Below are positions 1 to 17,524 of a stretch of DNA of 33,381 nt, piece by piece. Numbering within the stretch: position 1 is the stretch's first letter; each line of letters starts with the position of its first letter. The translations under genes and the position numbers were made by a program. The notes under the pieces were generated by a model. That model made no database searches, was not told the origin of the DNA, and worked only from the letters and a program-made list of their open reading frames with translations. The DNA comes from a virus (Duplodnaviria > Caudoviricetes), in IMG/VR virus record IMGVR_UViG_3300009703_000064, positions 1 to 33,381 of that record; one strand, 5' to 3'.

Positions 1-54
1 ACGTAGGAGTCGAGGTCGAAGTCGCTGTTAACGTAGGAGTCGAGGTCGAAGTCG
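1..54. repeat. 30-bp-period coding tandem repeat (Thr/Ser/Pro linker)
   Basis: acgtaggagtcgaggtcgaagtcg is identical at 1-24 and 31-54; it encodes TSTSTPT units on the minus strand. Confidence 0.9.
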
Positions 55-805
55 GTGTTGCAGTAAGAGTTGGAGTAGGAGTCGGGGTTGGAGTAGCGCA
101 ACAATGATCTCCGTTTACTGCTCTCACCCAGTAACTTGAATCTGTACCGGGCTCGACCGCACCGCTAGGTTCGGCTCCTGTATTATGGGATTGAATGCAC
201 CTATAAGCAGAACCACCATGACAAACGACTGCATCGCTTCCGGTGGTTGCGTCATAAGTAGTCCCGTTATCCCAAGCCTCTACCGGGCCACCTGATACGC
301 CATCACTAGAGCAATCAACAGTAGGTTCAGTAGTAGTTGGCGTCGGAGTTAGAGTTGACGTCGGGGTTGGTGTCGGGGTTGGTGTCGACGTTGAACTGCT
401 AGTAACAGTAGGCGTACTGGTTGGCGTACTTGTGGAGGTAGGAGTAGAATATAAACTGACCGTTGGTGTTGGGGTCGCGCAAGAGGTAGCTAAATCGCAG
501 TTCTCTCCAAACAACTCTTGACATACATCGTCACAATCTTCAAATACAGCACCAACACTTATTAAATCGAAATCAGTTCCACCTGCACCTGAAAAAATTT
601 CATAGTCTAACTCAACTGGAAAATCAGCACCATTGCTAATGTTAGGGGATGAGCAGCCGCTGCTATTTGTGCAACGAGCTATATGATAAGTAGCGGCGGC
701 GATCTCGCTTTCATCGCCAGTGTAATTGGCGGTATCAACGTTAACTGTTGTACCAGCAGGAAGTCCTCCTACACACCTACACAGGGTTGCACTCCAAATA
801 GCCAC
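1..805 (-). CDS. Truncated (runs off the left edge) Cys-rich protein with Thr/Pro/Ser mucin-like linkers and a CBM5/12 (ChiC-BD)-like carbohydrate-binding module; probable virion fibre or decoration protein
   Basis: Not in the ORF track because it has no stop in the window. Manual translation from GTG at 805 (SD-like AAGGAG upstream) is open to base 1: MAIWSATLCRCVGG...CDDVCQELFGENCDLATSCATPTPT...EAWDNGTTYDATTGSDAVVCHGGSAYRCIQSH...EPGTDSSYW...CCATPTPTPT. Confidence 0.85.
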   Translation of the reverse strand, partial: MAIWSATLCRCVGGLPAGTTVNVDTANYTGDESEIAAATYHIARCTNSSGCSSPNISNGADFPVELDYEIFSGAGGTDFDLISVGAVFEDCDDVCQELFGENCDLATSCATPTPTVSLYSTPTSTSTPTSTPTVTSSSTSTPTPTPTPTSTLTPTPTTTEPTVDCSSDGVSGGPVEAWDNGTTYDATTGSDAVVCHGGSAYRCIQSHNTGAEPSGAVEPGTDSSYWVRAVNGDHCCATPTPTPTPTLTATPTSTSTPTLTATSTSTPT

Positions 806-5980: not shown

Positions 5981-8443
5981 CTATTGGCAGCTTTCGCAAG
6001 TGGGGTCTAGTATGCTGCAAGCTTTAACCATATCCCCTATCGCTTCATGTTTACTTTCTATTTCAGCCATTGGCGTATTAGTGGACTTCTCAATTTCGCT
6101 TGCAGCCTTGTTTCTTAAGTAATAAGTGCTTTTTAAGCCGCAGTTTCTAGCGTGAAGATATAAATCATTTAGGTATTTTAATGATGTTTTGTTATTAAAC
6201 AAATTTAATGATTGACCCATATCAATCCATTTTTGTTTGGCTGCTGCTGATTCGACCAACTTAAACTGATCGTGCTCAAAAGCAGTGCGAAATCTAGACT
6301 TTAAATCTTCAGGTATCTCTCCGTTAAGAGAGCTTAATTCGCCATTAACGCTGACTATTAGGTCTACTAAATTTTGATTCCAAATCCCTCGCTCTTTGCA
6401 CTCTTTTATAAACCATTCATTTACAATCATTAAGTTCCCGCTTTTATTTTCATAAACAAAAAGAACTGAAAAGTCTGGCTCAATGCAAGGAGAGCAACCC
6501 TGAATGTAAGATATGGTTGCGGTTGGAGCAATTGCCATAGTATTGCTATTACGCATTCCATGATCTTTAATATGCCCTCTTAGCTCTTTCCAATCAACTT
6601 CTGGGCAAAACTTCTTACCTCTATGGACTATTGGCTTTTCATCAAGGTACTCCATTAAGTTTTTGTAAGTGTCTATAGGCAAAACGTCTTGATCCCATAA
6701 TGATCCTTCATAGGTTGAATACTTGCCCTTTTCTTTCGCTAATTTTGAAGAGTTAAAAATACAGTGATAAGAAATAAACTCATAAAGCTCATCTGAAAAC
6801 TTAACTGCCTCATCGCTGGAGAAGTTGACTTTATAAGAATGAAATACGTCGGCCCATCCCATGCTTCCGCCCCCTACTGGCCTATGCTTTAAATTGGAAT
6901 TTTCAGCCTCTCTGGTTGGGTAAAAATTTAAATCAATTACATTATCGAGCATTCTCATTTGAACCTCGATAGTTTTAGCTAGCTGGTCAAAGTCTAAAGT
7001 ACCATCATCTTTTAAATGCTCTTTAAGATTGACTGAGCTTAGATTACAAACAGCAGTCTCACCGACTTCTGTTTTTTCTCCTTCGTCAAATCTTGAAGGC
7101 TTTGTATGCAGGAAAATCTCAGTGCAAAGATTTGAACTGTGAATAGTACCTTCGTGAGAGTTAGAGTATCTTAAGTTAGAGTTATCCTTAAAAGTAATCC
7201 AAGGGTGTCCTGTCTCGAAAAGCATTCTAAGCATTTTCTTCCAGATATCTTTGGCTTTTACTGTTTTAAAATTCTTAATCTCACCTGAATCTGCCAACTT
7301 ACAATATTTTTTGTACTTCTTATCAAAGTCTTGGCCGTATAATTCATGCAAGTCCCTAGCGTCTGAAGGAGAGAATAAATACCAATCCTCATTATTTTTC
7401 ACCTTCTTAAAAAACAAGTCCGGTATCCAATTAGCAGTATTTAAATCGTGACACCTACGGCGTTCATCTCCAGTGTTTTTCTTGAGGTCTAAGAAGTCTT
7501 CTATATCTAAATGCCAAGGCTCAATGTAAGCGCAACCAGCACCCGGCCTTTTGCCTCCTTGGTTAACCGCAACGAGTAAATCGTTGTATATCTTTAGCCA
7601 AGGAACTAACCCACTAGAAGTTCCATTCGTCCCTTTAATGTGTGAACCAGATGAGCGAAAGTTAGTAACGTCAAAACCTAAGCCTCCAGCATACTTTGAC
7701 TTTCTAGCTTCCTGCCAAGCACCCTCAAAAATTCCATCGATTGAGTCATCAAAAGTATTAAGATAACAACTGGAAAGCTGGCTATGAGAACTGCCACTAT
7801 TAAAAAGGGTAGGAGTAGAGCAGCACAAAAAAAACTGAGACAACGTATTATAAAACTCAATAGCCTTTTCATTTTTATCTTTTTCATTTATAGCTAACCC
7901 CATAGCGACCCGCATCCAAAAAGCTTGTGGAGTCTCAAGCCTTCTTTCATTGATATGATGAAAGTATCTGTCGTGTAAAATTTGCAAACCAAGATATTTG
8001 AACTTTAAGTCTCTATCTAAAACCAAATGTTCCGAAAGACTTTTTATATCAAAGGCTAAAAGCTTATCGCTGAGTATTCCGTTTTTAATTAAAAGCTTAG
8101 TATTTCTAATAAAAGACAGCCTGTACTGATGATCAAACGCGTCCTTGTCTCTGCTTTCCCCAAACACTTCTTTGTGTATATTTCCTAAAAGAAGCCTTGA
8201 GGCTACGTAACTGTAATTTGGCTCTTTCTCTATCTTAGTCCTAGCAGACATGATGAGAGCTTTATCGATTTCTTTTGTAGAAATTTTATCATAAAGCTGA
8301 ACATGAGCATCTAAAACTACTTCGCTAGCTGAAACTCCTTCTAAATTCAAACAGGCTCTTTCCGCGCATAAATTAATTTTATTAATATTGAGTTTTTCAA
8401 GTCTACCATTCCTTTTTTTTACGTTAATTTTTGCAGTGCTCAT
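5981..8443 (-). CDS. nrdA: Ribonucleotide reductase large subunit (class I) with N-terminal ATP cone
   Basis: VKKRNG ATP cone, TPTLFNSG, SSCY, NQGGKRPGA, SNLCTEI, AVCNL, AIAPTATIS, STYYLR and C-terminal CESCQ. Confidence 0.97.
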   Translation of the reverse strand: MSTAKINVKKRNGRLEKLNINKINLCAERACLNLEGVSASEVVLDAHVQLYDKISTKEIDKALIMSARTKIEKEPNYSYVASRLLLGNIHKEVFGESRDKDAFDHQYRLSFIRNTKLLIKNGILSDKLLAFDIKSLSEHLVLDRDLKFKYLGLQILHDRYFHHINERRLETPQAFWMRVAMGLAINEKDKNEKAIEFYNTLSQFFLCCSTPTLFNSGSSHSQLSSCYLNTFDDSIDGIFEGAWQEARKSKYAGGLGFDVTNFRSSGSHIKGTNGTSSGLVPWLKIYNDLLVAVNQGGKRPGAGCAYIEPWHLDIEDFLDLKKNTGDERRRCHDLNTANWIPDLFFKKVKNNEDWYLFSPSDARDLHELYGQDFDKKYKKYCKLADSGEIKNFKTVKAKDIWKKMLRMLFETGHPWITFKDNSNLRYSNSHEGTIHSSNLCTEIFLHTKPSRFDEGEKTEVGETAVCNLSSVNLKEHLKDDGTLDFDQLAKTIEVQMRMLDNVIDLNFYPTREAENSNLKHRPVGGGSMGWADVFHSYKVNFSSDEAVKFSDELYEFISYHCIFNSSKLAKEKGKYSTYEGSLWDQDVLPIDTYKNLMEYLDEKPIVHRGKKFCPEVDWKELRGHIKDHGMRNSNTMAIAPTATISYIQGCSPCIEPDFSVLFVYENKSGNLMIVNEWFIKECKERGIWNQNLVDLIVSVNGELSSLNGEIPEDLKSRFRTAFEHDQFKLVESAAAKQKWIDMGQSLNLFNNKTSLKYLNDLYLHARNCGLKSTYYLRNKAASEIEKSTNTPMAEIESKHEAIGDMVKACSILDPTCESCQ

Positions 8444-8457
8444 GACGGGCGAAATAT

Positions 8458-8474
8458 CTGTAAGTATATTACAG
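8458..8474. promoter_or_regulatory. Perfect 6-5-6 palindrome upstream of nrdA (candidate operator or promoter)
   Basis: CTGTAA-gtata-TTACAG, 14 nt upstream of the nrdA ATG. Confidence 0.4.
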
Positions 8475-8489
8475 CTAGTAAAAAAATAC

Positions 8490-8531
8490 TGAAAGAAAAA
8501 ATCAGTTTAAGAAGAAAAAAATAAAACTGAT
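8490..8531 (-). terminator. Weak intrinsic terminator candidate downstream of the SET gene
   Basis: Inverted repeat ATCAGTTT (8501-8508) / AAACTGAT (8524-8531), followed on the minus strand by TTTTTCTTTC. The stem is AT-rich. Confidence 0.35.
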
Positions 8532-8555
8532 GGTTATAAAGTGTACGAAGTCTGA

Positions 8556-9476
8556 CTATCTATTGTAGAAAACGAACTTATGGTCATTCATTTCTCCGAA
8601 ATTTTCTTTACAATTTAATTCTAAATAAAAGAAATTAGTATTTATTTTAGCTTGATAAAATTTTTCGTAAAAAGAATCAGAAGAAGAAACTGCGTCTACT
8701 TTTAATTCAGCTAGAGCTTCAGAATTAGAGTCATAGAACTTTAAGGAGTTGATTATTACATCTCCTTTTTCGCAGGTGGAATTTATTTCTCCAGCTTGTT
8801 TTTCGGTTATACTTTTTTCATAGCCGATAACTGCTCTTAGGCATAGCTTATTGTTAACATTTCTTTCTGCATATATTCCTAAGTTCTCTCTAGATAAAAC
8901 TTTTTTACCCGTATCAGTTAAGAAATATCCATAATAAGTTCTTATCTCTTCTCCAGCCTTAATATCTTTTTTAGCGTAAAAAACAAAAGAGTCGGTTGTC
9001 GTATACCACTCTGCGTTAGGAGTCGGTGAGCTATTGTATACACATGCGTTACCAAGCGGTATAACTGAGTGCTTGTAGTTAGAGTTTTCTGACCCCCAGT
9101 CGAAAAGATACTCTTCAACGTTTCTTAGTCCCAAAGCTTTAGAAAAGCTGTCTACATTTTTAAAATGAGCACCAAAGATTTCATTAGAAGATAAAAAGTT
9201 AACGTATTCGGAGCCCTCTTTATGGAATGTGATGTTTATAAAAGGAACCTCTTCAAGAATATCACCCATTCTGATATCCTCTTTCGCGAACACTCCTCTT
9301 TCATTAGGGGAGCTTTGGATAAATTTGACCTCAACTTTTCCGCAGTTGTAGAATCTGGGGGATATAGGAGCTCTAGTAGATTGACTAGAAGGATCGTCTT
9401 CTAAAACGTAAGTATTTAGCTGAGAGCTAGTCTCTGATTTGCTTACCGCCTCTAAGATTTCTTGCTTTTGACTCAT
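8556..9476 (-). CDS. SET-domain protein (lysine methyltransferase fold) with C-terminal extension
   Basis: RGVFAKEDIRMGDILEE, YNSSPTPNAEW (variant of NHS) and AKKDIKAGEEIRTYYG. Likely start is ATG 9476. Confidence 0.8.
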   Translation of the reverse strand: MSQKQEILEAVSKSETSSQLNTYVLEDDPSSQSTRAPISPRFYNCGKVEVKFIQSSPNERGVFAKEDIRMGDILEEVPFINITFHKEGSEYVNFLSSNEIFGAHFKNVDSFSKALGLRNVEEYLFDWGSENSNYKHSVIPLGNACVYNSSPTPNAEWYTTTDSFVFYAKKDIKAGEEIRTYYGYFLTDTGKKVLSRENLGIYAERNVNNKLCLRAVIGYEKSITEKQAGEINSTCEKGDVIINSLKFYDSNSEALAELKVDAVSSSDSFYEKFYQAKINTNFFYLELNCKENFGEMNDHKFVFYNR

Positions 9477-9765
9477 AATCTTTTTTAACTGGGTCTTGAC
9501 CTCCAGACTTGTCCGCTCGTTTTTGTGACATTTCTTTAGACTTATCCCACAAGTCTCCAATGGTCATTTTTTTATTGTCGGTAGAGTCTGAAAAAGCTCT
9601 TTCTGAAAAAGGATCAACCTGAGTGTCAATTGAAGCGTGAGGTATAGTCCAGATTCTTTCCCATTTTAAATTATTTTCATCAAAATATACGTGCTCTTCT
9701 TTTGCTTTTTGAAGAACTTCCTTGACCTCTCCGGTTTCAGGGTTTTCGTATAAGTATATTGGCAT
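9427..9765 (-). CDS. FmdB-family-like small protein lacking the Zn-ribbon cysteines
   Basis: N-terminus MPIYLYENPETGEVKEVLQ matches the MPIYEYxCxxCG pattern but with no Cys. Confidence 0.55.
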   Translation of the reverse strand: MPIYLYENPETGEVKEVLQKAKEEHVYFDENNLKWERIWTIPHASIDTQVDPFSERAFSDSTDNKKMTIGDLWDKSKEMSQKRADKSGGQDPVKKDYESKARNLRGGKQIRD

Positions 9766-10866
9766 TTAAATATCCGATATGTTTGAGATTATGGAGTCTA
9801 AAGTTTTAGCTGGAGTAAACTCTTCTTTTAATTTTAGCCCTTCTTCGTTAACTGGGCTAGTTTTATATCTCTCTATAGCTTTTTCACACCCATCAATGAA
9901 TGCATCTTCATCGAAGTCAAAAATCTGACCTTGATTGTAATCAGAATCCTTCTTAAAAAATACATTATCATAAACATCTATTTTTTTATCTGGAGAAACT
10001 AAAACTGAGTTCTGCTCGTTTGCCCAAGATTTGTATCCATGAGCATCCATAATGACAGAGTGCTTACCTATAGCGACCGATTGAAACTCCGGTAGTCCCC
10101 AGCCTTCTCCGCCAGACATCCCAATAATTATGTGACCACCGTTTAAGAACTCATTATATGTAGCGTTCTTGGTCATTGATGGGAAAAAATTAATATTAAT
10201 ATATGTTTTATTTTCTAAAATTCTAGCCACAACACCATTGTTGTCTTCCGGAGAAAGGAATCCATTGTAAATGGAGCAGTGCAAAAAATATCTTTTGTCT
10301 CCACCAAACCTCTTAGCCCAAGCTCGAATTATTTTTTCGTGTCGTTTTCTTTTTTCGACCTTTCCACAAACGGTAAAAACAATTCTATCATCTTCATAAA
10401 AGTCTTTGCCGTTCGGGAGCTTTTCCATTCTTTTGAAGTTGTCAGAATCAAAGGGAAGAGGGATATACTTACTCTCTATTCCATTTTTTCTAAAAGCTTC
10501 TATTGCGAACTTTGAAGTAAAAGCCAAATTATTATTTTTAGCTATATTTAATTCAGTATCAGTAGGAGAATCTAGTTCGTAAAAAGAAAGAAGCAGTTGT
10601 CTTTCGCTCATTGAGGAAAGAGAGTCTTTGAGATGCCAGAGCTTAAACGTGGGATTCGCTCTGCTATGCTTTCTTTCTGAAGAGTCATAGTTCCTTTTTA
10701 TCCAATCAAAAAAACCTTCGTCGTCTTCTTGAGAGGAAAGATCAACTCCGCTGCCTATAGGGAAAATAGGAAAATCCAGTTTTCTTCTATAAGCCTCTCT
10801 CAGCAAGCAAGTAGAAACTTGACCGAAAGAAACGGAGTTAATTGGAACGTTAAACGCTAAGTCCAT
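9766..10866 (-). CDS. Glycosyltransferase, GT-B fold, GT4-like
   Basis: VCGKVEKRKRHEKII and EGWGLPEFQSVAIGK (variant of EGFGLPxxEAxAxG). Confidence 0.8.
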   Translation of the reverse strand: MDLAFNVPINSVSFGQVSTCLLREAYRRKLDFPIFPIGSGVDLSSQEDDEGFFDWIKRNYDSSERKHSRANPTFKLWHLKDSLSSMSERQLLLSFYELDSPTDTELNIAKNNNLAFTSKFAIEAFRKNGIESKYIPLPFDSDNFKRMEKLPNGKDFYEDDRIVFTVCGKVEKRKRHEKIIRAWAKRFGGDKRYFLHCSIYNGFLSPEDNNGVVARILENKTYININFFPSMTKNATYNEFLNGGHIIIGMSGGEGWGLPEFQSVAIGKHSVIMDAHGYKSWANEQNSVLVSPDKKIDVYDNVFFKKDSDYNQGQIFDFDEDAFIDGCEKAIERYKTSPVNEEGLKLKEEFTPAKTLDSIISNISDI

Positions 10867-11162
10867 TAAAGAGTTTCGTCGCCAAATGGATCATTGCTTT
10901 GACTCTGGCTCTTTTGCTGACCGCCACCATTAGAGTCCTTGCTCTTCGGACGATCAATGTAGACTCTCAGTGCTGGATGCTTGTCTTCAGTTTTAAAAAC
11001 ATTTTCCTCGACGTAAACATTATTTATTCCAGCAGCAGCCAACTTCTTAACATCGATTGTTCCGGTGTAGTAAGTTCTCTCTTTGCCATCTCTGGATGTA
11101 AATGTCTTGGACCAAAGAGCCCCAAGCTCTCTTTCTTTTCTGTCAGTTTTCTGATCGCTCAT
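10866..11162 (-). CDS. DUF736-like small protein (possible nucleic-acid-binding protein) with acidic C-terminal tail
   Basis: ELGALWSKT...YYTGTID...KHPALRVY, followed by a G/Q/S linker and DPFGDETL. Confidence 0.55.
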   Translation of the reverse strand: MSDQKTDRKERELGALWSKTFTSRDGKERTYYTGTIDVKKLAAAGINNVYVEENVFKTEDKHPALRVYIDRPKSKDSNGGGQQKSQSQSNDPFGDETL

Positions 11163-11170
11163 AGAGGTGA

Positions 11171-11199
11171 AGAATAATGGACGGAAAAAATTATTGCAA
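11171..11199 (-). promoter_or_regulatory. sigma70-like promoter
   Basis: TTGCAA(11199-11194)-N17-TATTCT(11176-11171)-N8-ATG(11162). Confidence 0.6.
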
Positions 11200-11862
11200 G
11201 TTTATTTTAATACCTTTTGAGCGTATGTCTCTTTTTAAGCAAATAAGGAAATCTGAAACGTGGTAAGATATTGCTTTTTCTATTTCAGCCTCGCTGCTCT
11301 TGTAAACGTGCTCCCAATCAATGATATAATCATACGCTTTTAGAAGCTTGGGATTATTTCTTTCCTCTTCCTCGTTAGCTGGCGGGTCATCAACGACAGA
11401 ACATCCGTCAAGCGAGAATTTGTGCTTTTGGACATAAACAAGAAAACCTTCAAGCTCTTTCTTAATAAAATGAACCTCATCTAGAGGATAATCTGCATAT
11501 CTAACGTCGGTAATACATATATTAGAATTAAGATCACCCTCAGATTTAATTTTATGATATAATTTATTTATAAAATATCTTCCATCCGTAGATTCCCTTT
11601 TTTCCTTTGCGTAAGAAACCAAATAGTCCCTTATTTGACCTTTTTCTGACCTAGAACAATTGGTTGGATCGACTCCAAATTTATCTAGACACTCCTCTTT
11701 GACTTCTTCCTTAAGAATATCGGCAAATGAGTATCTTTTGATCTGAATCTGCCTCTCTAGACACTTGAAAAAAGTATCCTTTCCCGCTCCAGCCACCCCA
11801 GCAATACCAAGCACTAAAGGCTTAATCTTTGACCTGTCTACAAAATTATTAGTGTTAAGCAT
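11191..11862 (-). CDS. Deoxynucleoside monophosphate kinase (T4 gp1/T5 dnk-like)
   Basis: P-loop GIAGVAGAGKDT, SFADILKE and ITDVRY..E. Start moved to ATG 11862, which follows a promoter. Confidence 0.8.
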   Translation of the reverse strand: MLNTNNFVDRSKIKPLVLGIAGVAGAGKDTFFKCLERQIQIKRYSFADILKEEVKEECLDKFGVDPTNCSRSEKGQIRDYLVSYAKEKRESTDGRYFINKLYHKIKSEGDLNSNICITDVRYADYPLDEVHFIKKELEGFLVYVQKHKFSLDGCSVVDDPPANEEEERNNPKLLKAYDYIIDWEHVYKSSEAEIEKAISYHVSDFLICLKRDIRSKGIKINLQ

Positions 11863-11869
11863 CGATTTC

Positions 11870-11898
11870 ACAATATGATAAATAATATTAAATATCAA
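11870..11898 (-). promoter_or_regulatory. sigma70-like promoter
   Basis: TTGATA(11898-11893)-N17-TATTGT(11875-11870)-N7-ATG(11862). Confidence 0.55.
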
Positions 11899-11922
11899 AT
11901 GAAAAACAATATATCCCAAACT

Positions 11923-11993
11923 CTCACCCCTTAAAGTTAATTACGTTCAAAATTTAATTTACTTAAATTTTTTAAAGTTACGTAGAGTGTGAG
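11923..11993. repeat. Long imperfect inverted repeat (hairpin B)
   Basis: CTCAC/GTGAG, TACGT/ACGTA and AAAATTTAA/TTAAATTTT are nested around a 5-nt loop. Confidence 0.65.
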
Positions 11994-12017
11994 CTTTTTT
12001 TAAGAAATATATAAAGA

Positions 12018-12081
12018 CACTCCCCCCATTTAATCCTAAAGATTAATTAAATAATCTTAAAGGACTTTTAGGGGGGAAGTG
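12018..12081. repeat. Long imperfect inverted repeat with C6/G6 clamp (hairpin A); terminator or origin element
   Basis: CACT-CCCCCC...TCCT-AAAGATTA-attaaa-TAATCTT-AAAGGA...GGGGGG-AAGTG, with T-rich sequence following on both strands. Confidence 0.75.
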
Positions 12082-12097
12082 GAATGTTCGCTTTTTT

Positions 12098-12415
12098 TGA
12101 AGCCCTCTATTGTTTTTACTGGTGGGGAACCCAGTTAGACATACCATCGAAAATCGAAATTACTTACCTAATAAGGTCAAGAAATGGTGCTCAAAACTTG
12201 TTACAGTAATTCTCCCTAGCTTGTAGCTACACGCCGGGTAGTGCATCAGTTTTAACTGATCATTTTTTTGATAAAGTCGTATGAAACTTCAGGAGATTTT
12301 TCCCCTTGGATGTGGTACTACTCCAATACCTGACAGTTCAAACGAACCTCGTTATTGTCTCACCTTGGGGCATCTTTAACTGCTGTCAACTCAGTAGATG
12401 AGGGCGTTCAGCCTT
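12098..12415 (-). ncRNA. Candidate large structured non-coding RNA (~320 nt), family not recognised
   Basis: No ORF; about 42% GC by hand count, higher than the AT-rich spacers; 5' and 3' ends pair (UGAAcGCCCUC 12410-12400 with GAGGGCUUCA 12107-12098); about 10 internal helices; upstream promoter and downstream hairpin. Confidence 0.65.
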
Positions 12416-12421
12416 GAGCGG

Positions 12422-12450
12422 AAAATATGCAAAGGAAAACGATTAGTCAA
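12422..12450 (-). promoter_or_regulatory. sigma70-like promoter for the candidate ncRNA
   Basis: TTGACT(12450-12445)-N17-TATTTT(12427-12422); predicted start at about 12415, with no ATG following. Confidence 0.5.
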
Positions 12451-12865
12451 CAGAATTATTTTCTTGGCTTTTATCCTGAACAATTGAATTGCAAATAAAT
12501 ACCATATTAGCCAAGTCTTTATCAGAAATACTTGACGCGTCACAAATATCCTCTTTGTTTTCTAGAACCTCACAAAAAGAGTTTATAATGGCCTCTACGC
12601 CTAGTGCTGTTGTAGGGCTGACCTCAACATCTTGAGTGTAAGCCTGAAAGGGTTTTTTAAGAATCCAGTACTCCTTATCGTGATAATCAATTTTAGAAAT
12701 TATATTTTTTTCAGATAAATCTTGAAGTCCAAACATCACGACTGCCCTGTCTTCATCTTCGTTTTCTGAAAGCGGGACAATTTTCTTAAAATCTCTTTCT
12801 AATAAAAATGTATCATTAGAAGAAAACCATTTAAAAAGAATATTTGTTGACTCTAATCCGTTCAT
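12443..12865 (-). CDS. Hypothetical acidic protein (140 aa)
   Basis: ORF with likely ATG at 12865; the TTG start given in the track is the -35 box. Confidence 0.75.
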   Translation of the reverse strand: MNGLESTNILFKWFSSNDTFLLERDFKKIVPLSENEDEDRAVVMFGLQDLSEKNIISKIDYHDKEYWILKKPFQAYTQDVEVSPTTALGVEAIINSFCEVLENKEDICDASSISDKDLANMVFICNSIVQDKSQENNSVD

Positions 12866-12872
12866 CTTCTTG

Positions 12873-12901
12873 ACTATGCGTCTTGTAGGGCATTTTGTCA
12901 A
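12873..12901 (-). promoter_or_regulatory. sigma70-like promoter (leftward member of a divergent pair)
   Basis: TTGACA(12901-12896)-N17-CATAGT(12878-12873)-N7-ATG(12865). Confidence 0.6.
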
Positions 12902-12908
12902 AAATAAC

Positions 12909-12937
12909 TTGACTATATATTTTTTAATAAATATTAT
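12909..12937 (+). promoter_or_regulatory. sigma70-like promoter (rightward member of a divergent pair)
   Basis: TTGACT(12909-12914)-N17-TATTAT(12932-12937)-N8-ATG(12946). Confidence 0.65.
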
Positions 12938-12945
12938 CGGTTCGT

Positions 12946-13224
12946 ATGAATGAGACTTTTGAACTAGAAGAAAAGCCGACTAAAGTTAATGTATCTTTTA
13001 ATTTTGAAAAGCCCAAAAGAAGGGTTGGCCGACCAAACAAGCAAATCTCTTGGCCTGAAGGAAGCTTCACTTTCGAAGATATAGTAAAGAGCAACGAGGG
13101 AATATCTCAGTCGTCGCTTAGGAATAATATAATCTCAAATTTAAAAAACGGTAAATTAGTAAAAGCTGACAAACTTAAGAGTAAATTTGGAAGACCAAAA
13201 GATGTCTACAGGTGCGCTCAATGA
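12946..13224 (+). CDS. Small basic winged-helix DNA-binding protein
   Basis: FTFEDIV...ISQSSLRNNI..NLKNGKLVK...GRPKDVY fits a wHTH with a GRP wing; an extra RRVGRP AT-hook-like motif is present. Confidence 0.6.
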   Translation: MNETFELEEKPTKVNVSFNFEKPKRRVGRPNKQISWPEGSFTFEDIVKSNEGISQSSLRNNIISNLKNGKLVKADKLKSKFGRPKDVYRCAQ

Positions 13225-13622
13225 GAATTGATTGGGAGAGATACGCTCTAAGTTTAGCGAAAGTAGCAGCCCTCAGAAGCGAAGACCCTTTTGTTAAGGT
13301 TGGAGCATGTGTTTTAAGGCATGATAATTCTGTAGCCTCGTTAGGTTACAACGGAGCACCTCCAAAAGTAAACATAGACTGGTCTGACAGAGATGAAAGA
13401 AGGAGGCGAGTTATACATGCAGAAGCAAACGCTTTGAGGTACGTTAAGCCTCAAGAATGTAGGCTGCTAGCCTGTACGCTTCTGCCATGTAACGATTGCC
13501 TAAAATTGATAAGCTCTTACGGAATAAAAGAAGTTGCGTACATTGAAGAGTACGACAAAGATTGTAGCTCTCTTACTTTAGCTTCAGAGTTTGGAATAAA
13601 TTTAAAAAAGATAAATGTTTGA
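13221..13622 (+). CDS. dCMP deaminase (Zn-dependent cytidine/deoxycytidylate deaminase family)
   Basis: RSEDP..KVGAC, GYNGAP, HAEANAL and PCNDC; ATGA overlap with the upstream gene. Confidence 0.92.
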   Translation: MRIDWERYALSLAKVAALRSEDPFVKVGACVLRHDNSVASLGYNGAPPKVNIDWSDRDERRRRVIHAEANALRYVKPQECRLLACTLLPCNDCLKLISSYGIKEVAYIEEYDKDCSSLTLASEFGINLKKINV

Positions 13623-13956
13623 AATAGTATTAATATCTTGTTCGGTATTCTTGATCTTAGTTATTTGGTTTAAGAGTGACGCCTTCATTGAGTATTCAGG
13701 TATAATTGGAGCATCAAAATTTTTCTTAATTGATGACTTTAAAGAGAAGCAGAAAAACGATTTAACTTTAGACTACTTGGGATACTTGGCTACTTATCAT
13801 TCTAGCTTTTTTATAAAACTTATAACTTGCCCGATCTGCTTGTCTGTATGGGTAACACTCGCGCTCTGCTTAACAATAGACAACCTGATCATCCATCCAG
13901 TATGTAATTCTTTTGCCTTAATTACTTTCTACCTATTCTCAAAAATCTCAGAATAA
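13615..13956 (+). CDS. Small membrane protein, DUF1360-like
   Basis: Several hydrophobic segments and the LITCPICLSVWV motif. Confidence 0.55.
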   Translation: MFEIVLISCSVFLILVIWFKSDAFIEYSGIIGASKFFLIDDFKEKQKNDLTLDYLGYLATYHSSFFIKLITCPICLSVWVTLALCLTIDNLIIHPVCNSFALITFYLFSKISE

Positions 13957-15141
13957 ATGCACTTATTAGAAACATTTGCGCTTTCAACTGGTACAAAAAT
14001 TGATAAGCCTTACATCCTAGAAAAGTTTTTTCCCTTGGGGTTAAAAGGGGACTACATAACCTTTCAGCCATTTGGAAAAATGGAAAGCAGGAAGTACGAG
14101 TATTGGAATGAAGTTACCAATATTTTATACCCAATTTTAAACGCTAATAATATTAACATCGTCCAGCTTGGAGGACCAGAAGAGCAAAATTTAGACAAGT
14201 GTGTTCCGATGAATGGCCAAACGACCTTCAATCAAATGGCCTACATAATTAACAGGGGAGCACTTCATCTTGGAGTCGACAGTCTTGGAGTTCACGTAGC
14301 TTCCGGTTTCGGTAAAAAGATAGTGGGGCTTTACTGCAATATGTACACTCAAAACTCCAGACCTTATTGGAGCGACGATGAAGATGTAATTTTGCTAGAG
14401 GCTGATAGAAAAGGGAACAAGCCCACGTTCTCAGGTCAAGAAAGCCCAAAAACTATTAATACAATTTACCCAGAAACAATAGCAGAATCAGTTTGCAAAT
14501 TACTGGGAATAGAATTCAGCTATCCTTATAAAACTTTATATATAGGAGAAAACTTCTCCCAAAAAACTTTTGAGCTTATACCTAATTATCCAGTTGATCC
14601 AAGTAGCTACGGCTTCTCAAGCGTTATCGTTCGAATGGATTTAGAGTTTAATGAGCAAATGCTTTGGCAACAGTTAATGATTTCGCCATGCTCAATTATG
14701 ACTAACAAGCCAATTGACGTACAAAAACTTTTGCATTTTAAAAAGAATATTAAGGAGTTTGTTTACCTGATAGATAAAAATAGCAATCCAGACTACGTTA
14801 AAGCACTAGGCTCGGCTGGAATAAAACCTTTGTTAATGAGCTTCCTTGATGAAGATGATTTAAATAAATACAAGTTAGATTACATTGACCACGGAAGAAT
14901 ACTTCAAAGGTCAAACTCTAGCAGAGAAGATATAAAAGAAATAAAAAATAAAAAAGACGATAAACTTTTTTATAAAAGTTCTAGGCATTATATTTTAGGC
15001 CAACAGCTTTTTTGGACTAAATCACCTAACTTTGACAGCAAGCCAATAAAAGATGAAAACAGATACATTCCTCAACCATTAAAGGCTGGAGAAAATTTTT
15101 GGAATGATAATTCTGTTTATCATATTTTAGAAAAAGCTTGA
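13957..15141 (+). CDS. Glycosyltransferase, GT9 (heptosyltransferase)-like N-terminal half with C-terminal extension
   Basis: IVQLGGPEE, GQTTFNQMAYII and LHLGVDSLGVHVASGFGKKIVGLY (DSGxxHxAxA-type motif). Confidence 0.75.
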   Translation: MHLLETFALSTGTKIDKPYILEKFFPLGLKGDYITFQPFGKMESRKYEYWNEVTNILYPILNANNINIVQLGGPEEQNLDKCVPMNGQTTFNQMAYIINRGALHLGVDSLGVHVASGFGKKIVGLYCNMYTQNSRPYWSDDEDVILLEADRKGNKPTFSGQESPKTINTIYPETIAESVCKLLGIEFSYPYKTLYIGENFSQKTFELIPNYPVDPSSYGFSSVIVRMDLEFNEQMLWQQLMISPCSIMTNKPIDVQKLLHFKKNIKEFVYLIDKNSNPDYVKALGSAGIKPLLMSFLDEDDLNKYKLDYIDHGRILQRSNSSREDIKEIKNKKDDKLFYKSSRHYILGQQLFWTKSPNFDSKPIKDENRYIPQPLKAGENFWNDNSVYHILEKA

Positions 15142-15166
15142 GCGGTTTTTTTACTTATAGTATAAA
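15138..15166 (+). promoter_or_regulatory. sigma70-like promoter
   Basis: TTGAGC(15138-15143)-N17-TATAAA(15161-15166)-N6-ATG(15173). Confidence 0.55.
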
Positions 15167-15172
15167 ATTTTT

Positions 15173-15922
15173 ATGGCAGCGAAAAAACAAGCTGGTGCTT
15201 CAAAGAAAAAAATCACCAGAGATGTGGATGGGTTAATCAAAGGACTAGAATATCAATTCACCGAGGAGGGATTGATTGATTGGCGTAAAATGCTAGACGA
15301 TAAATGGCTTTACCCAAACCCCGGAAAAAACTTAAAAACACAAGATGTTTCAGAATTAAAAGATTCTGACCTTTGTATTCTGCTTGGCGGAATCAAAGAG
15401 CTTGCCCAAATAAGGGGCTACACAAACGTTAGTTATGATGTGGTTTCTCCTAGCTCAGATTATGTTGTAGCTAACTGCACTATAACTTGGAGGGCCAACT
15501 ACGAAACAGAGGGTGAGGACGTTTCATTTTCATCAATGGGAGACTCATCTCTAAATAATACCGCTCCTATGAATGGAATTTATTATCTAGCCACTACGGC
15601 AGAAAATAGAGCATTCGTGAGATGTGTTAGAAATTTTTTAAAGATTAACATTGTAGGGAAAGAAGAAATGGGCAGCTTCAATGCTCCAGTCAATGTTTCT
15701 TCTGGAGGCCAAGTCTCTTCTGGAAATGCGGGTAGAGGTCAAACAGATGTTAAAACATGTTTGTCGGAATTGATGGAGGAGAAAGGAATTGGTTTCGAAA
15801 AGGTCAAAGGCTTTTTAGTAAAAAGAGGCATTCCTAATGCAGAAAATTTTTCAAGCGTTTCAGATATTCCAAAGCTTGAAGCCTACGCTACTATAAAAGC
15901 GATAGAAAAGAAGTCTGGTTAA
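15173..15922 (+). CDS. Putative single-strand annealing protein (Rad52/RecT-like fold)
   Basis: GIKELAQIRG...VANCTITW...FSSMGDSS...LATTAENRAFVRCVRNFL resembles the beta-sheet plus AExRAxxRxxR helix of SSAPs. Confidence 0.5.
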   Translation: MAAKKQAGASKKKITRDVDGLIKGLEYQFTEEGLIDWRKMLDDKWLYPNPGKNLKTQDVSELKDSDLCILLGGIKELAQIRGYTNVSYDVVSPSSDYVVANCTITWRANYETEGEDVSFSSMGDSSLNNTAPMNGIYYLATTAENRAFVRCVRNFLKINIVGKEEMGSFNAPVNVSSGGQVSSGNAGRGQTDVKTCLSELMEEKGIGFEKVKGFLVKRGIPNAENFSSVSDIPKLEAYATIKAIEKKSG

Positions 15923-15926
15923 GGAC

Positions 15927-16937
15927 TTAAGAAGTAACCGTAAATACGACGTCAGATACCGCCTCTCCAGAGTGAGTAAATATCTTAACTGGGCCAGCGT
16001 ATCCAGCAAAAGTATCACTAGGTACTGTTAGCTTCACAGAATTATCGTCAACTACTTCAATTTCGCACAAGTAATCGTCTATAAAACCTGCTATTGATTC
16101 GCTTAAGTTAGTTCCATTCACGGTAAAAGTGGCCCCAATAGCTCCACTAGAAGCCGAAAGCGAAGTTATTGTTGGGGGCTCCTCTACAATCCCTTGTGAT
16201 ATCTCAAAATTTCTAATTAACTCTTCTCCAACTCCAGCAGAAAAGTCTTCTCCTATCATTTTTCCAGAAATAAAATAAGAACTTCCATTTGAGAATGTGA
16301 TTCTTATCTTATGATCTGGAAGAGACATATCGGTTTGAGGGTCATAATCGTATGTCGTGAACTTACTTTTAATTATTTTATTCGCACTAGAAACCCTTTT
16401 TATAACTGGCAAATCTCCCGATTCTGAAATTTCTATCTGAGGCTCTAGATTATTGCTGTACGAATACTCTACTGAAAGCAGAGAAGTATCTTTAATATTA
16501 GAAACTTCATCAATAGTAACAGACTGCACTGTTACGCATGGTTTTTCGGGAACCGTCTCAAGAGAATGGCTAACCTGACCTTGGGGTTTTTCATAAAAAG
16601 TAAAACTGGCATCTATCCCCACCGCAGAGTACGGCCTAGCTGACATTCTATAAGAAGAAAGATAAGCCTTCTCTATAAGCAGTCCGCCTATTTCGATGGA
16701 AACAGCAGCAGCCTCTTTTTTGCATAAATCATAAATGAAATCGCTATCTGAGTTTAAAATGAAATTTGCCGCTATGCTCCCGCTTCTAACTGACGAGGGG
16801 TTAAATGAACTAGGGGCAGAAGCTCCAACTTCATATCCCGGAGAAATGCTAACGTTTGTTGAAAGGTTAACATTTGGGCTGTATATTAGCTGATCATTAA
16901 TCTTTAGCGTTATATTTGAAAAATTTACACTATTCAT
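15927..16937 (-). CDS. Virion structural protein (tail tube/hub-like beta-rich region) with C-terminal IPT/TIG Ig-like domain
   Basis: C-terminus PTITSLSASSGAIGATFTVNGTNL...SVKLTVP...GPVKIFT..GEAVS...FTV is a typical IPT/TIG domain; the gene is adjacent to the tail genes. Confidence 0.6.
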   Translation of the reverse strand: MNSVNFSNITLKINDQLIYSPNVNLSTNVSISPGYEVGASAPSSFNPSSVRSGSIAANFILNSDSDFIYDLCKKEAAAVSIEIGGLLIEKAYLSSYRMSARPYSAVGIDASFTFYEKPQGQVSHSLETVPEKPCVTVQSVTIDEVSNIKDTSLLSVEYSYSNNLEPQIEISESGDLPVIKRVSSANKIIKSKFTTYDYDPQTDMSLPDHKIRITFSNGSSYFISGKMIGEDFSAGVGEELIRNFEISQGIVEEPPTITSLSASSGAIGATFTVNGTNLSESIAGFIDDYLCEIEVVDDNSVKLTVPSDTFAGYAGPVKIFTHSGEAVSDVVFTVTS

Positions 16938-16965
16938 AATAAACCAAACAAAAATAGTCTTTTTC

Positions 16966-16975
16966 GGTGTAAATA
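16966..16975 (+). promoter_or_regulatory. GTGTAA motif upstream of the tail operon
   Basis: GGTGTAAATA ahead of a purine-rich leader and ATG 17000; an oppositely oriented copy lies at 16925-16930. Confidence 0.45.
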
Positions 16976-16999
16976 CAAGCGGAAAAAGGTAAAGGAAAA

Positions 17000-17524
17000 A
17001 TGGCTTCTATTTACAATACTAAACAGTGGGACAACTCAAAATCCTATGTAGAAAACGACATAGTTTATCATCAGATAAATAGTCAAAATAGGTTTTTTTA
17101 CGCTACCAAATCTTCGTCGAACCAAGCTCCGGCAGAAGGCTCACAATTTTGGAAGGGTATCTTAACTCTCCCTTCATCCTCCAAAGCTCTAGGTCATTTT
17201 TTCTGGAAGCCTTCGTACTCCCTTAATACTAATATAGCACCGAAAGTTAAAACTATAAAACTTGGAAACGGTTACGAACAAAGATTAAAAGATGGCTTTA
17301 ACAATATTCTTTTAAATTATTCTTTGACGTTCAAGAACATAGATGAAAAACAAGCAACAGCGATATCTCATTTTCTTTTTGATAAAGGTGCTGTAGAAGA
17401 ATTTTATTTCATGGCTCCAACCCCAATAGGAATTTTTAAAAAGTTTGTATGTGTTGACTTTCAAGTTAATAATAAATTTTTTAATAACTTTGATGTAAAC
17501 GCTAAATTTCAAGAGAAACCTTAA
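17000..17524 (+). CDS. Lambda gpM-like minor tail protein with N-terminal CBM5/12-like module
   Basis: FFWKPSY...PKVKTIKLGNGYEQRLKDGFN...YSLTF...FLFDKGAVEEFYF...AKFQE. Confidence 0.85.
   Translation: MASIYNTKQWDNSKSYVENDIVYHQINSQNRFFYATKSSSNQAPAEGSQFWKGILTLPSSSKALGHFFWKPSYSLNTNIAPKVKTIKLGNGYEQRLKDGFNNILLNYSLTFKNIDEKQATAISHFLFDKGAVEEFYFMAPTPIGIFKKFVCVDFQVNNKFFNNFDVNAKFQEKP

Follow-up and report, generated by a model that had tools for sequence, protein, structure and literature searches.

Conservation and covariation point to a heavily pseudoknotted non-coding RNA family in large tailed phages

Ornate orphan RNAs of phages are known as a kind from three publications (PMC12286853, PMC5737381, PMC11751092), and RNAs that combine pseudoknots or junctions with several bases conserved at 97% typically carry out demanding biochemistry, according to PMC5737381. 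GOLLD and ROOL are such multi-pseudoknot orphan RNAs of phages (PMC12286853, PMC5737381), and PMC11751092 describes the raiA motif as an orphan non-coding RNA of 200-300 nt from Firmicutes and Actinobacteria chromosomes, which has a compact multi-helix pseudoknotted core, conserved single-stranded bases, an optional periphery, a closing P1 stem and two pseudoknots sharing one pk-loop. The RNA family described here resembles GOLLD and ROOL in being ornate, phage-borne and orphan, but is about half their length or less and not located in tRNA islands. It resembles raiA in its compact knotted core, unpaired conserved bases and optional periphery; however, it occurs in phages, has no conserved closing stem and contains at least four crossing pairings, including a 3´-terminal pseudoknot. 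In contrast to all three it has no Rfam match. The family has 47 near-invariant columns versus 10 at 97% reported for ROOL in a different sample (PMC12286853 and PMC5737381).

The RNA was found in the window, by which we mean the whole stretch of 33,381 nucleotides analysed (IMG/VR record IMGVR_UViG_3300009703_000064, Caudoviricetes). Its gene content, with a RecA-like protein, ribonucleotide reductase, dNMP kinase, dCMP deaminase, glycosyltransferases and lambda-like tail genes, is that of a large tailed phage; related contigs reach up to 110-210 kb, and the metagenome runs containing the window are marine, aquatic-viral and subsurface. A blastn comparison with cultured phages gave chance matches only, and no cultured relative emerged from the proteins: among the matches listed RNR alpha was at most 46% and the RecA-like protein at most 27% identical. 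The names of protein homologs were uninformative about the host; the Atlas cluster at 0.89 carries the label Verrucomicrobiota, which rests on 2 members and gives a weak lead. At the edge of the window an open frame (2-805, minus strand) that has Thr-Pro repeats as well as segments rich in Cys is truncated by the window end.

The protein encoded upstream of the RNA belongs to no Pfam or PHROG family and found no match as a lone query against viral contigs. Its N-terminal part is predicted to form a winged-helix domain (pLDDT 78), and the best structure matches were MarR/BlaI-type winged helices, none of them at E <= 0.001. Between this winged-helix gene and a gene whose small basic product has a GRP motif lies a divergent promoter pair (12901 minus, 12909 plus); the region concerned, 12865-12946, is kept in relatives and is likely an early control region. 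Two genes common in relatives, one of PHROG 1574 (PCYGG motif) and one resembling sigma factors, are missing from the window between 10866-11162 and 12098.

The gap itself (11874-12443) is, at 568 nt, the largest intergenic gap in the window (the next has 112 nt), and no ORF longer than 41 aa lies entirely inside. The first-pass annotation had singled it out for its size, its GC content of about 42% and a minus-strand promoter, and all three observations held: positions 12098-12450 have 41% GC versus 19-36% in seven other spacers, and TTGACT-N17-TATTTT is located at 12450-12422. The further claim that five neighbouring genes have the same promoter could not be substantiated, since 8000-17500 contains 21 promoter-like sites versus 26.3 expected and the strict pattern TTGAC-N-TA..T occurs at only 4 sites in the window. 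The complementarities listed in that annotation can be read in the sequence. The RNA does not fold better than shuffled sequence (z = -1.22; 9/100 shuffles equally good), perfect duplexes of at least 6 bp number 13 versus 11.8 +/- 3.1 in shuffles, and complementarities of 5, 6 and 7 bp number 45, 13 and 1 versus 44.8, 11.8 and 3.2. Across 11 family members the single-sequence folding z ranges from -0.3 to -2.4. Because folding and complementarity are no better than in shuffles, the proposed helices cannot be judged from one sequence; on the comparative evidence it is conservation, not single-sequence folding, that makes the feature real.

Used alone as an nhmmer query, the window gap finds the same gap in 4 loci (E 2e-9 to 2e-5), and a dCMP deaminase search led to 19 viral loci; the flanking proteins in the syntenic loci are 30-47% identical to those of the window. 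Relatives were collected by protein-alignment scans, DNA-pattern scans and iterated nhmmer searches over viral and metagenome contigs. The element is present in 155 of the 280 sequences collected (duplicates counted), with at least 87 non-redundant full-length copies and at least 92 distinct near-full-length sequences. Pattern scanning of genome contigs yielded 29 stretches; one, in a MAG contig, contains the RNA and the same winged-helix gene, and the other 28 were chance matches without RNA. The covariance model R1, built from 46 sequences including the window, matches 80 sources, all preselected carriers, with 150-289 bits over 273-332 nt; the window, being part of the training set, scores 150 bits at 12090-12417. 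Mean pairwise identity within the family is 63%, and the window copy is its most divergent member, at most 61% identical to the others save one 98% relative. Natural deletion variants near 275 nt exist. Each genome among the records searched has a single copy, and one match each was obtained in the carrier genomes G001 and G004. A diverged RNA occupies the slot at L045:1736-2069(-); it scores 22 bits with R1 and retains the 5´ hairpins of the family.

The conserved fold was evaluated on an unfitted MAFFT alignment of 46 sequences (45 sequences poor in insertions, from which two near-duplicates were dropped and to which the window and three more were added). In a 71-pair structure derived from these same sequences, 89.1% of the cells are paired, versus 77.5 +/- 0.4 in shuffled alignments and 36-47% with slid partners. 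Both sides change in 49 of the 71 pairs and the covariation score is 0.381 versus 0.180 (0/500 shuffles as high), counts that are inflated by relatedness. Because of this kinship, events were also counted on a tree of 80 sequences, with a model-fitted alignment and 12,000 unrelated column pairs as background: 38 of 61 pairs show at least two independent compensatory changes (p < 0.01). Judged by these comparisons, the gap holds a real gene for a heavily pseudoknotted non-coding RNA family (Table 1).

Table 1. Coordinates of the RNA, its structural elements and its neighbours in the window
Feature	Position	Strand	Remarks
Upstream gene	12443..12865	-	140 aa; usual, not obligatory, neighbour of the RNA
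Sigma-70-type promoter	12422..12450	-	-35 TTGACT 12450-12445, 17 nt, -10 TATTTT 12427-12422
Non-coding RNA, ~325 nt	12090..12417	-	putative ends, from the R1 match, nhmmer relatives and two RNA-library contigs
P1 hairpin	12413-12403	-	only 3 bp in the window
P2 hairpin	12400-12371	-	conserved purine-rich loop
P3 domain	12302..12370	-	CCCC/GGGG stem closes junction with P4 and P5
P4	within 12302..12370	-	variable; GACA/UGUC and GUUC/GAAC hairpin
P6 hairpin	12272..12291	-	missing in a few relatives
PK-C, long-range pseudoknot	P6 loop CAUAC 12283-12279 / GUAUG 12144-12140	-	partner permutations
Knotted core	12158..12267	-	X, P8, V, Y, Z, W, P12
X	12265-12262/12185-12182	-	8, 2, 0, 2 independent events
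P8	12260-12245	-	core hairpin
V, 2 bp	12244-12243/12234-12233	-	encloses loop with invariant CCC
Y	12232-12230/12189-12187	-	nearly invariant; one double change
Z	12211-12205/12164-12158	-	up to 13 independent events
Invariant GUAA linker	12204-12201	-	core
W	12200-12197/12181-12178	-	7, 4, 0, 0 independent events
Invariant UUUU	12196-12193	-	core, W loop
P12	12177-12166	-	followed by invariant A12165
P13	12157-12147	-	kept in relatives
P14	12135-12118	-	kept in relatives
PK-D, 3´ pseudoknot	P14 loop CCC 12126-12124 / GGG 12105-12103	-	past A-rich linker
Terminator-like hairpin, then T-rich run	12018..12081	-	-31.4 kcal/mol
Downstream deoxynucleoside monophosphate kinase gene	11191..11919	-	PHROG 139, E 1.8e-12

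The fold begins with the hairpins P1 and P2, followed by the P3 junction with its variable branches P4 and P5, by P6 and by the knotted core, and every conserved helix of the family is present in the window. Four pseudoknot helices or crossings are supported. Strand X finds its partner 80 nt downstream; the W loop contains the invariant UUUU as well as the 3´ strands of Y and X, and W leads directly to P12, an invariant A and the 3´ strand of Z. X and Y cross W and Z; X, W and Z all covary, and helix Y rests mainly on conservation. For PK-C, own partners beat swapped ones in 76 sequences, with 0/2000 permutations as high (kinship not corrected). The same count, again not corrected for kinship, was obtained for PK-D, which shows 1, 1 and 2 independent events per pair. 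A fifth pseudoknot between the invariant CCC and an invariant GG could pair in most members but does not covary (1998/2000 permutations as high), and the P2 loop showed no covarying partner among five regions tried and P4. Of the 298 columns, 47 are at least 97% conserved among 80 sequences and 37 of these lie in a core of 103 nt (12267-12165), where many near-invariant columns are unpaired; this invariant core contrasts with a variable periphery.

About half of the fold drawn in the first-pass annotation was wrong. Relatives keep five of its helices, namely AUCU-ACUG/CAGU-AGAU (P2), AUCAGU/ACUGAU (P8), AAUUACU/AGUAAUU (Z), UCGA/UCGA (P13) and ACUGG/CCAGU (P14), and UAGCU/AGCUA occurs in a minority of them, as an insertion. 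The pairing of the two ends, proposed as a closing stem, found no backing: its own partner is no better than swapped ones (338/2000 permutations as high). The same applies to three proposed pseudoknots, UGACAG/CUGUCA (481/2000), UUCCCC/GGGGAA (1215/2000) and ACCAU/AUGGU (58/2000), and to the suggested switch, whose alternative pairings are neither conserved nor covarying. End pairing and these pseudoknots are perfect in the window, yet they occupy bases of P1, P4, P3, PK-D, X/Y and PK-C, and GAACUgUCAGG/CCUGAAGUUUC and UUGGA/UCCAA occupy bases assigned to P3-P6 in the family fold. The covarying pseudoknots of the family are a different set, which had been missed. In the window the end pairing is strong (9 bp) and P1 short, so that this copy could form it; the nested family fold is computed at -69.9 kcal/mol with the pseudoknot helices left out, versus -81.2 for the minimum free energy fold, which pairs both ends. 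The window variant may therefore fold partly differently from the family. The missing covariation of the end pairing, together with a topology different from the one in PMC11751092, led us to reject the raiA motif as an identity for the RNA.

The signals flanking the RNA are conserved as well. The promoter overlaps the stop codon of the upstream gene, TTGAY is found 28-48 nt ahead of the RNA in 67 of 80 family members, and the -10 positions TA...T are conserved at 84/91/75%. A terminator-like site lies at most 90 nt past the RNA in 73 of 78 copies, compared with 1 of 200 random window stretches examined with the same detector. The hairpin in the window is a lengthened version of the C-run/G-run hairpin of the relatives, and a consensus terminator scan of the window did not list it. 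It contains a 40-nt AT-rich inner hairpin where relatives have a loop of 4-8 nt. The RNA lies directly behind the winged-helix gene in 46 of the 67 copies with enough flank and behind dUTPase-like or other genes in the remaining ones, with the promoter kept. Since promoter and terminator are kept behind other genes, the RNA is not a leader of the downstream gene. Taken together, a separately transcribed large phage non-coding RNA, as first suspected, is strongly supported by covariation, the conserved promoter and terminator and the lack of an Rfam match.

Metatranscriptome data give a weak hint of expression. Two contigs of 151 nt (0 and 2 differences) map at 12086-12236 and 12255-12406, both from one run with depth 2 and no strand given, which was chosen for containing this stretch. 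Within the 19.9 kb covered, 17 records were obtained, 15 of them partial fits, and the two whole near-identical ones are both inside the RNA; parts of the window without coverage in that run carry no weight.

The first-pass annotation had suggested, among other roles, a replication primer. A priming or origin RNA, or else a switch controlling in cis the nucleotide-metabolism genes that lie downstream, would fit the location among DNA-metabolism genes near the divergent promoter pair and the 9 bp over which the window ends can pair. We nevertheless consider both roles very improbable: a terminator follows the RNA in nearly all copies, the position is shuffled in relatives, where the gene is found in other neighbourhoods, the alternative pairings do not covary and RVT_1 was found in 0 of 4 phage records. 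In addition, genes for primase, DnaB helicase and PolIII alpha are all present in the carrier genome G004 (96% complete), so a primer RNA is not needed; this genome also encodes sigma-70-region-2 proteins. Other genes of this genome specify a tubulin/FtsZ-family protein (L281:9305-10462), ClpP, PhoH and a long sugar-modification cluster.

Comparison with known families likewise left the RNA without a relative, in line with the first-pass annotation, which did not recognise it. The window has no match in Rfam 15 at the gathering threshold, and 20 relatives' loci yielded tRNAs only. Scanning the window gap and the relative L021 by E-value gave a best hit of 19 bits, with all hits far below the cut-off. 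Family and topology are not in Rfam 15. Our literature search returned no paper on this RNA, and three of its motifs were absent from the readable supplements of Fremin et al. 2023 (PMC10690425), alignments and large tables excepted; an overlap with the 10,006 candidates of that study is possible.

As annotated initially, hallmarks of tRNA, tmRNA and RNase P are absent. Like tmRNA (RF00023), the RNA has a chain of pseudoknots and a similar length, and its helix Y is reminiscent of tmRNA helix 2; unlike tmRNA, it has neither a tRNA-like domain nor a tag frame. ARAGORN detected no tmRNA in the window or the family loci and the alignments show no tRNA-like domain with T arm and CCA end, whether in one piece or two, so this identity was rejected. 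So was a role as a stand-in, since three carriers (G001, G004, G009) each have both the RNA and a canonical tmRNA; R1 finds nothing in the tmRNA of G004, with a best in-gene score below 1 bit. These tmRNAs (L281:1537-1959 in G004, L291:3546-3974 in G001, L295 in G009) were found by Rfam and missed by ARAGORN. In G004 and G009 the tag frame, read by eye, is unusually long with about 35 codons, which would fit Verrucomicrobiota.

RNase P RNA is marked by a P4 pseudoknot with conserved regions; the family consensus lacks these motifs and matches no Rfam model of this class. Group I and group II introns were rejected because the RNA has no Rfam match and stands free between promoter and terminator, and no RT was found in 4 records; retron and DGR RNAs were rejected on the grounds that PF00078 occurs in 0 of 4 records and the end pairing is not conserved. 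GOLLD and ROOL are excluded by length, as model matches span 273-332 nt versus about 580 to >800 nt, and by the lack of an Rfam match.

HDV ribozymes follow the order P1-P2-P3-P1.1 and have a J4/2 with the catalytic C. The RNA shares with them nested pseudoknots and contiguous 3´ strands that run into a hairpin and closing helix, but its 5´ strands are ordered differently (Y5´ precedes Z5´), a single A before Z3´ takes the place of the catalytic-C linker, it is three times longer, and it has no Rfam match; it is thus not an HDV-like ribozyme. It could instead be a new one, with the knotted core as a catalytic centre that cuts or joins the RNA itself or other RNA, for instance phage tRNA or tmRNA precursors or host RNA. 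The dense invariant core, the variable periphery and the contiguous 3´ strands Y-A-X-W-P12-A-Z, a layout reminiscent of nested-pseudoknot ribozymes, speak for catalysis, as do the tRNAs and the tmRNA encoded by the carrier phages. We still regard a new ribozyme, second in rank among our explanations, as unlikely: no Rfam ribozyme matches even at E up to 10, strand order and single-A linker are unlike HDV, neither exons nor a substrate-guide segment are seen, own promoter and terminator make self-processing unnecessary, and the RNA contigs, very thin data, show no joint or loose end.

Another way to explain the ornate fold is self-assembly, with the RNA as a small analogue of GOLLD, ROOL and OLE, in which PK-C, PK-D and the P2 loop would partly pair between copies. 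Covariation is blind to the difference between intra- and intermolecular pairs, and PMC12286853 describes a ROOL kissing loop that covariation had at first suggested to be a tertiary contact and that turned out to form between molecules; the RNA is also phage-borne, ornate and orphan like its larger counterparts. However, ROOL (659 nt) and GOLLD (>800 nt) are twice as large, and no more than 3 of the 155 clade loci, whose flanks are mostly 0.3-3 kb, showed tRNA genes. By analogy, the similarly sized raiA RNA, a monomer according to PMC12286853, would argue for a monomer here as well, and we judge self-assembly improbable.

In G009, short repeat-spacer arrays lie directly behind the tmRNA (L295 and L300, G009:77062-82863), and a 492-aa Cas12f/TnpB-like gene is located near them. 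This combination could be taken to mean that the RNA is a tracrRNA-like scaffold for such a protein and its mini-arrays. G009 is the only carrier in which Cas12f-like gene and repeats were seen: PF07282 is present in 1 of 3 carriers, the gene is missing from G004 and from G001 (66% complete), and no non-coding repeat array was found in either. Moreover, the segment that would have to pair with a repeat is helix Z, whose own two strands covary. A guide-scaffold role is thus highly unlikely, and known tracrRNA or TnpB-Cas12f scaffold RNAs were rejected as an identity.

In sister phages the same locus holds a different structured RNA of 400-450 nt, which has its own promoter, covarying long-range helices, several pseudoknots and an internal, co-evolving direct repeat. 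It was found in 33 loci with 22 distinct sequences (L056:1479-1933(-), L024:3593-4051(+), L030, L001, L057, L116-L125 and others). In 0 loci did both RNAs occur together; the second RNA is absent from G001 and G004, and the first from four incomplete records carrying the second. Short shared words had suggested homology or a circular permutation, which was rejected: the profile-profile score was 14.0 versus 9.8-17.1 in 12 shuffles, and there were no cross-matches between the two. A quick tree of the neighbouring protein places the second type at three positions among first-type carriers, with weak support. Further diverged slot RNAs resembling the second one are present at L046:1686-2180 and L018:4536-4995(-).

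As a candidate function we tentatively propose that the RNA of the window is a binding RNA, either decoy or scaffold, which works in trans during the early phase of infection. The promoter type suggests that host RNA polymerase would transcribe it early, and the transcript would fold into a compact, multiply pseudoknotted molecule. The invariant AAA, UUUU, CCC, GG and GUAA strands might form base triples and thereby a pocket, in which the near-invariant core could hold a host molecule, be it a protein machine or a small nucleotide signal. Binding would be its task rather than catalysis. This explanation, the best we have, is weakened by the fact that an invariant knotted core fits a ribozyme equally well. 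A bolder idea, which we hold to be doubtful, is that the four-way-knotted core of 103 nt is where a new class of ribozyme has its active site, or else forms a ligand pocket that sequesters a host defence signal; as the slot is filled by an unrelated knotted RNA in sister phages, it would then represent a single RNA-based function with two separate solutions.

RNAs that are both large and intricately folded are uncommon, and solving the handful of orphan classes known (raiA, OLE, ROOL, GOLLD) revealed new 3D folds. The family described here has a pseudoknot topology unlike the families tested; with about 300 nt its members are small enough for direct probing, cleavage assays and cryo-EM, and about 90 variants are available to guide mutagenesis. 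That two unrelated ornate RNAs replace each other at the same phage locus suggests a selected, yet undescribed function in infection.
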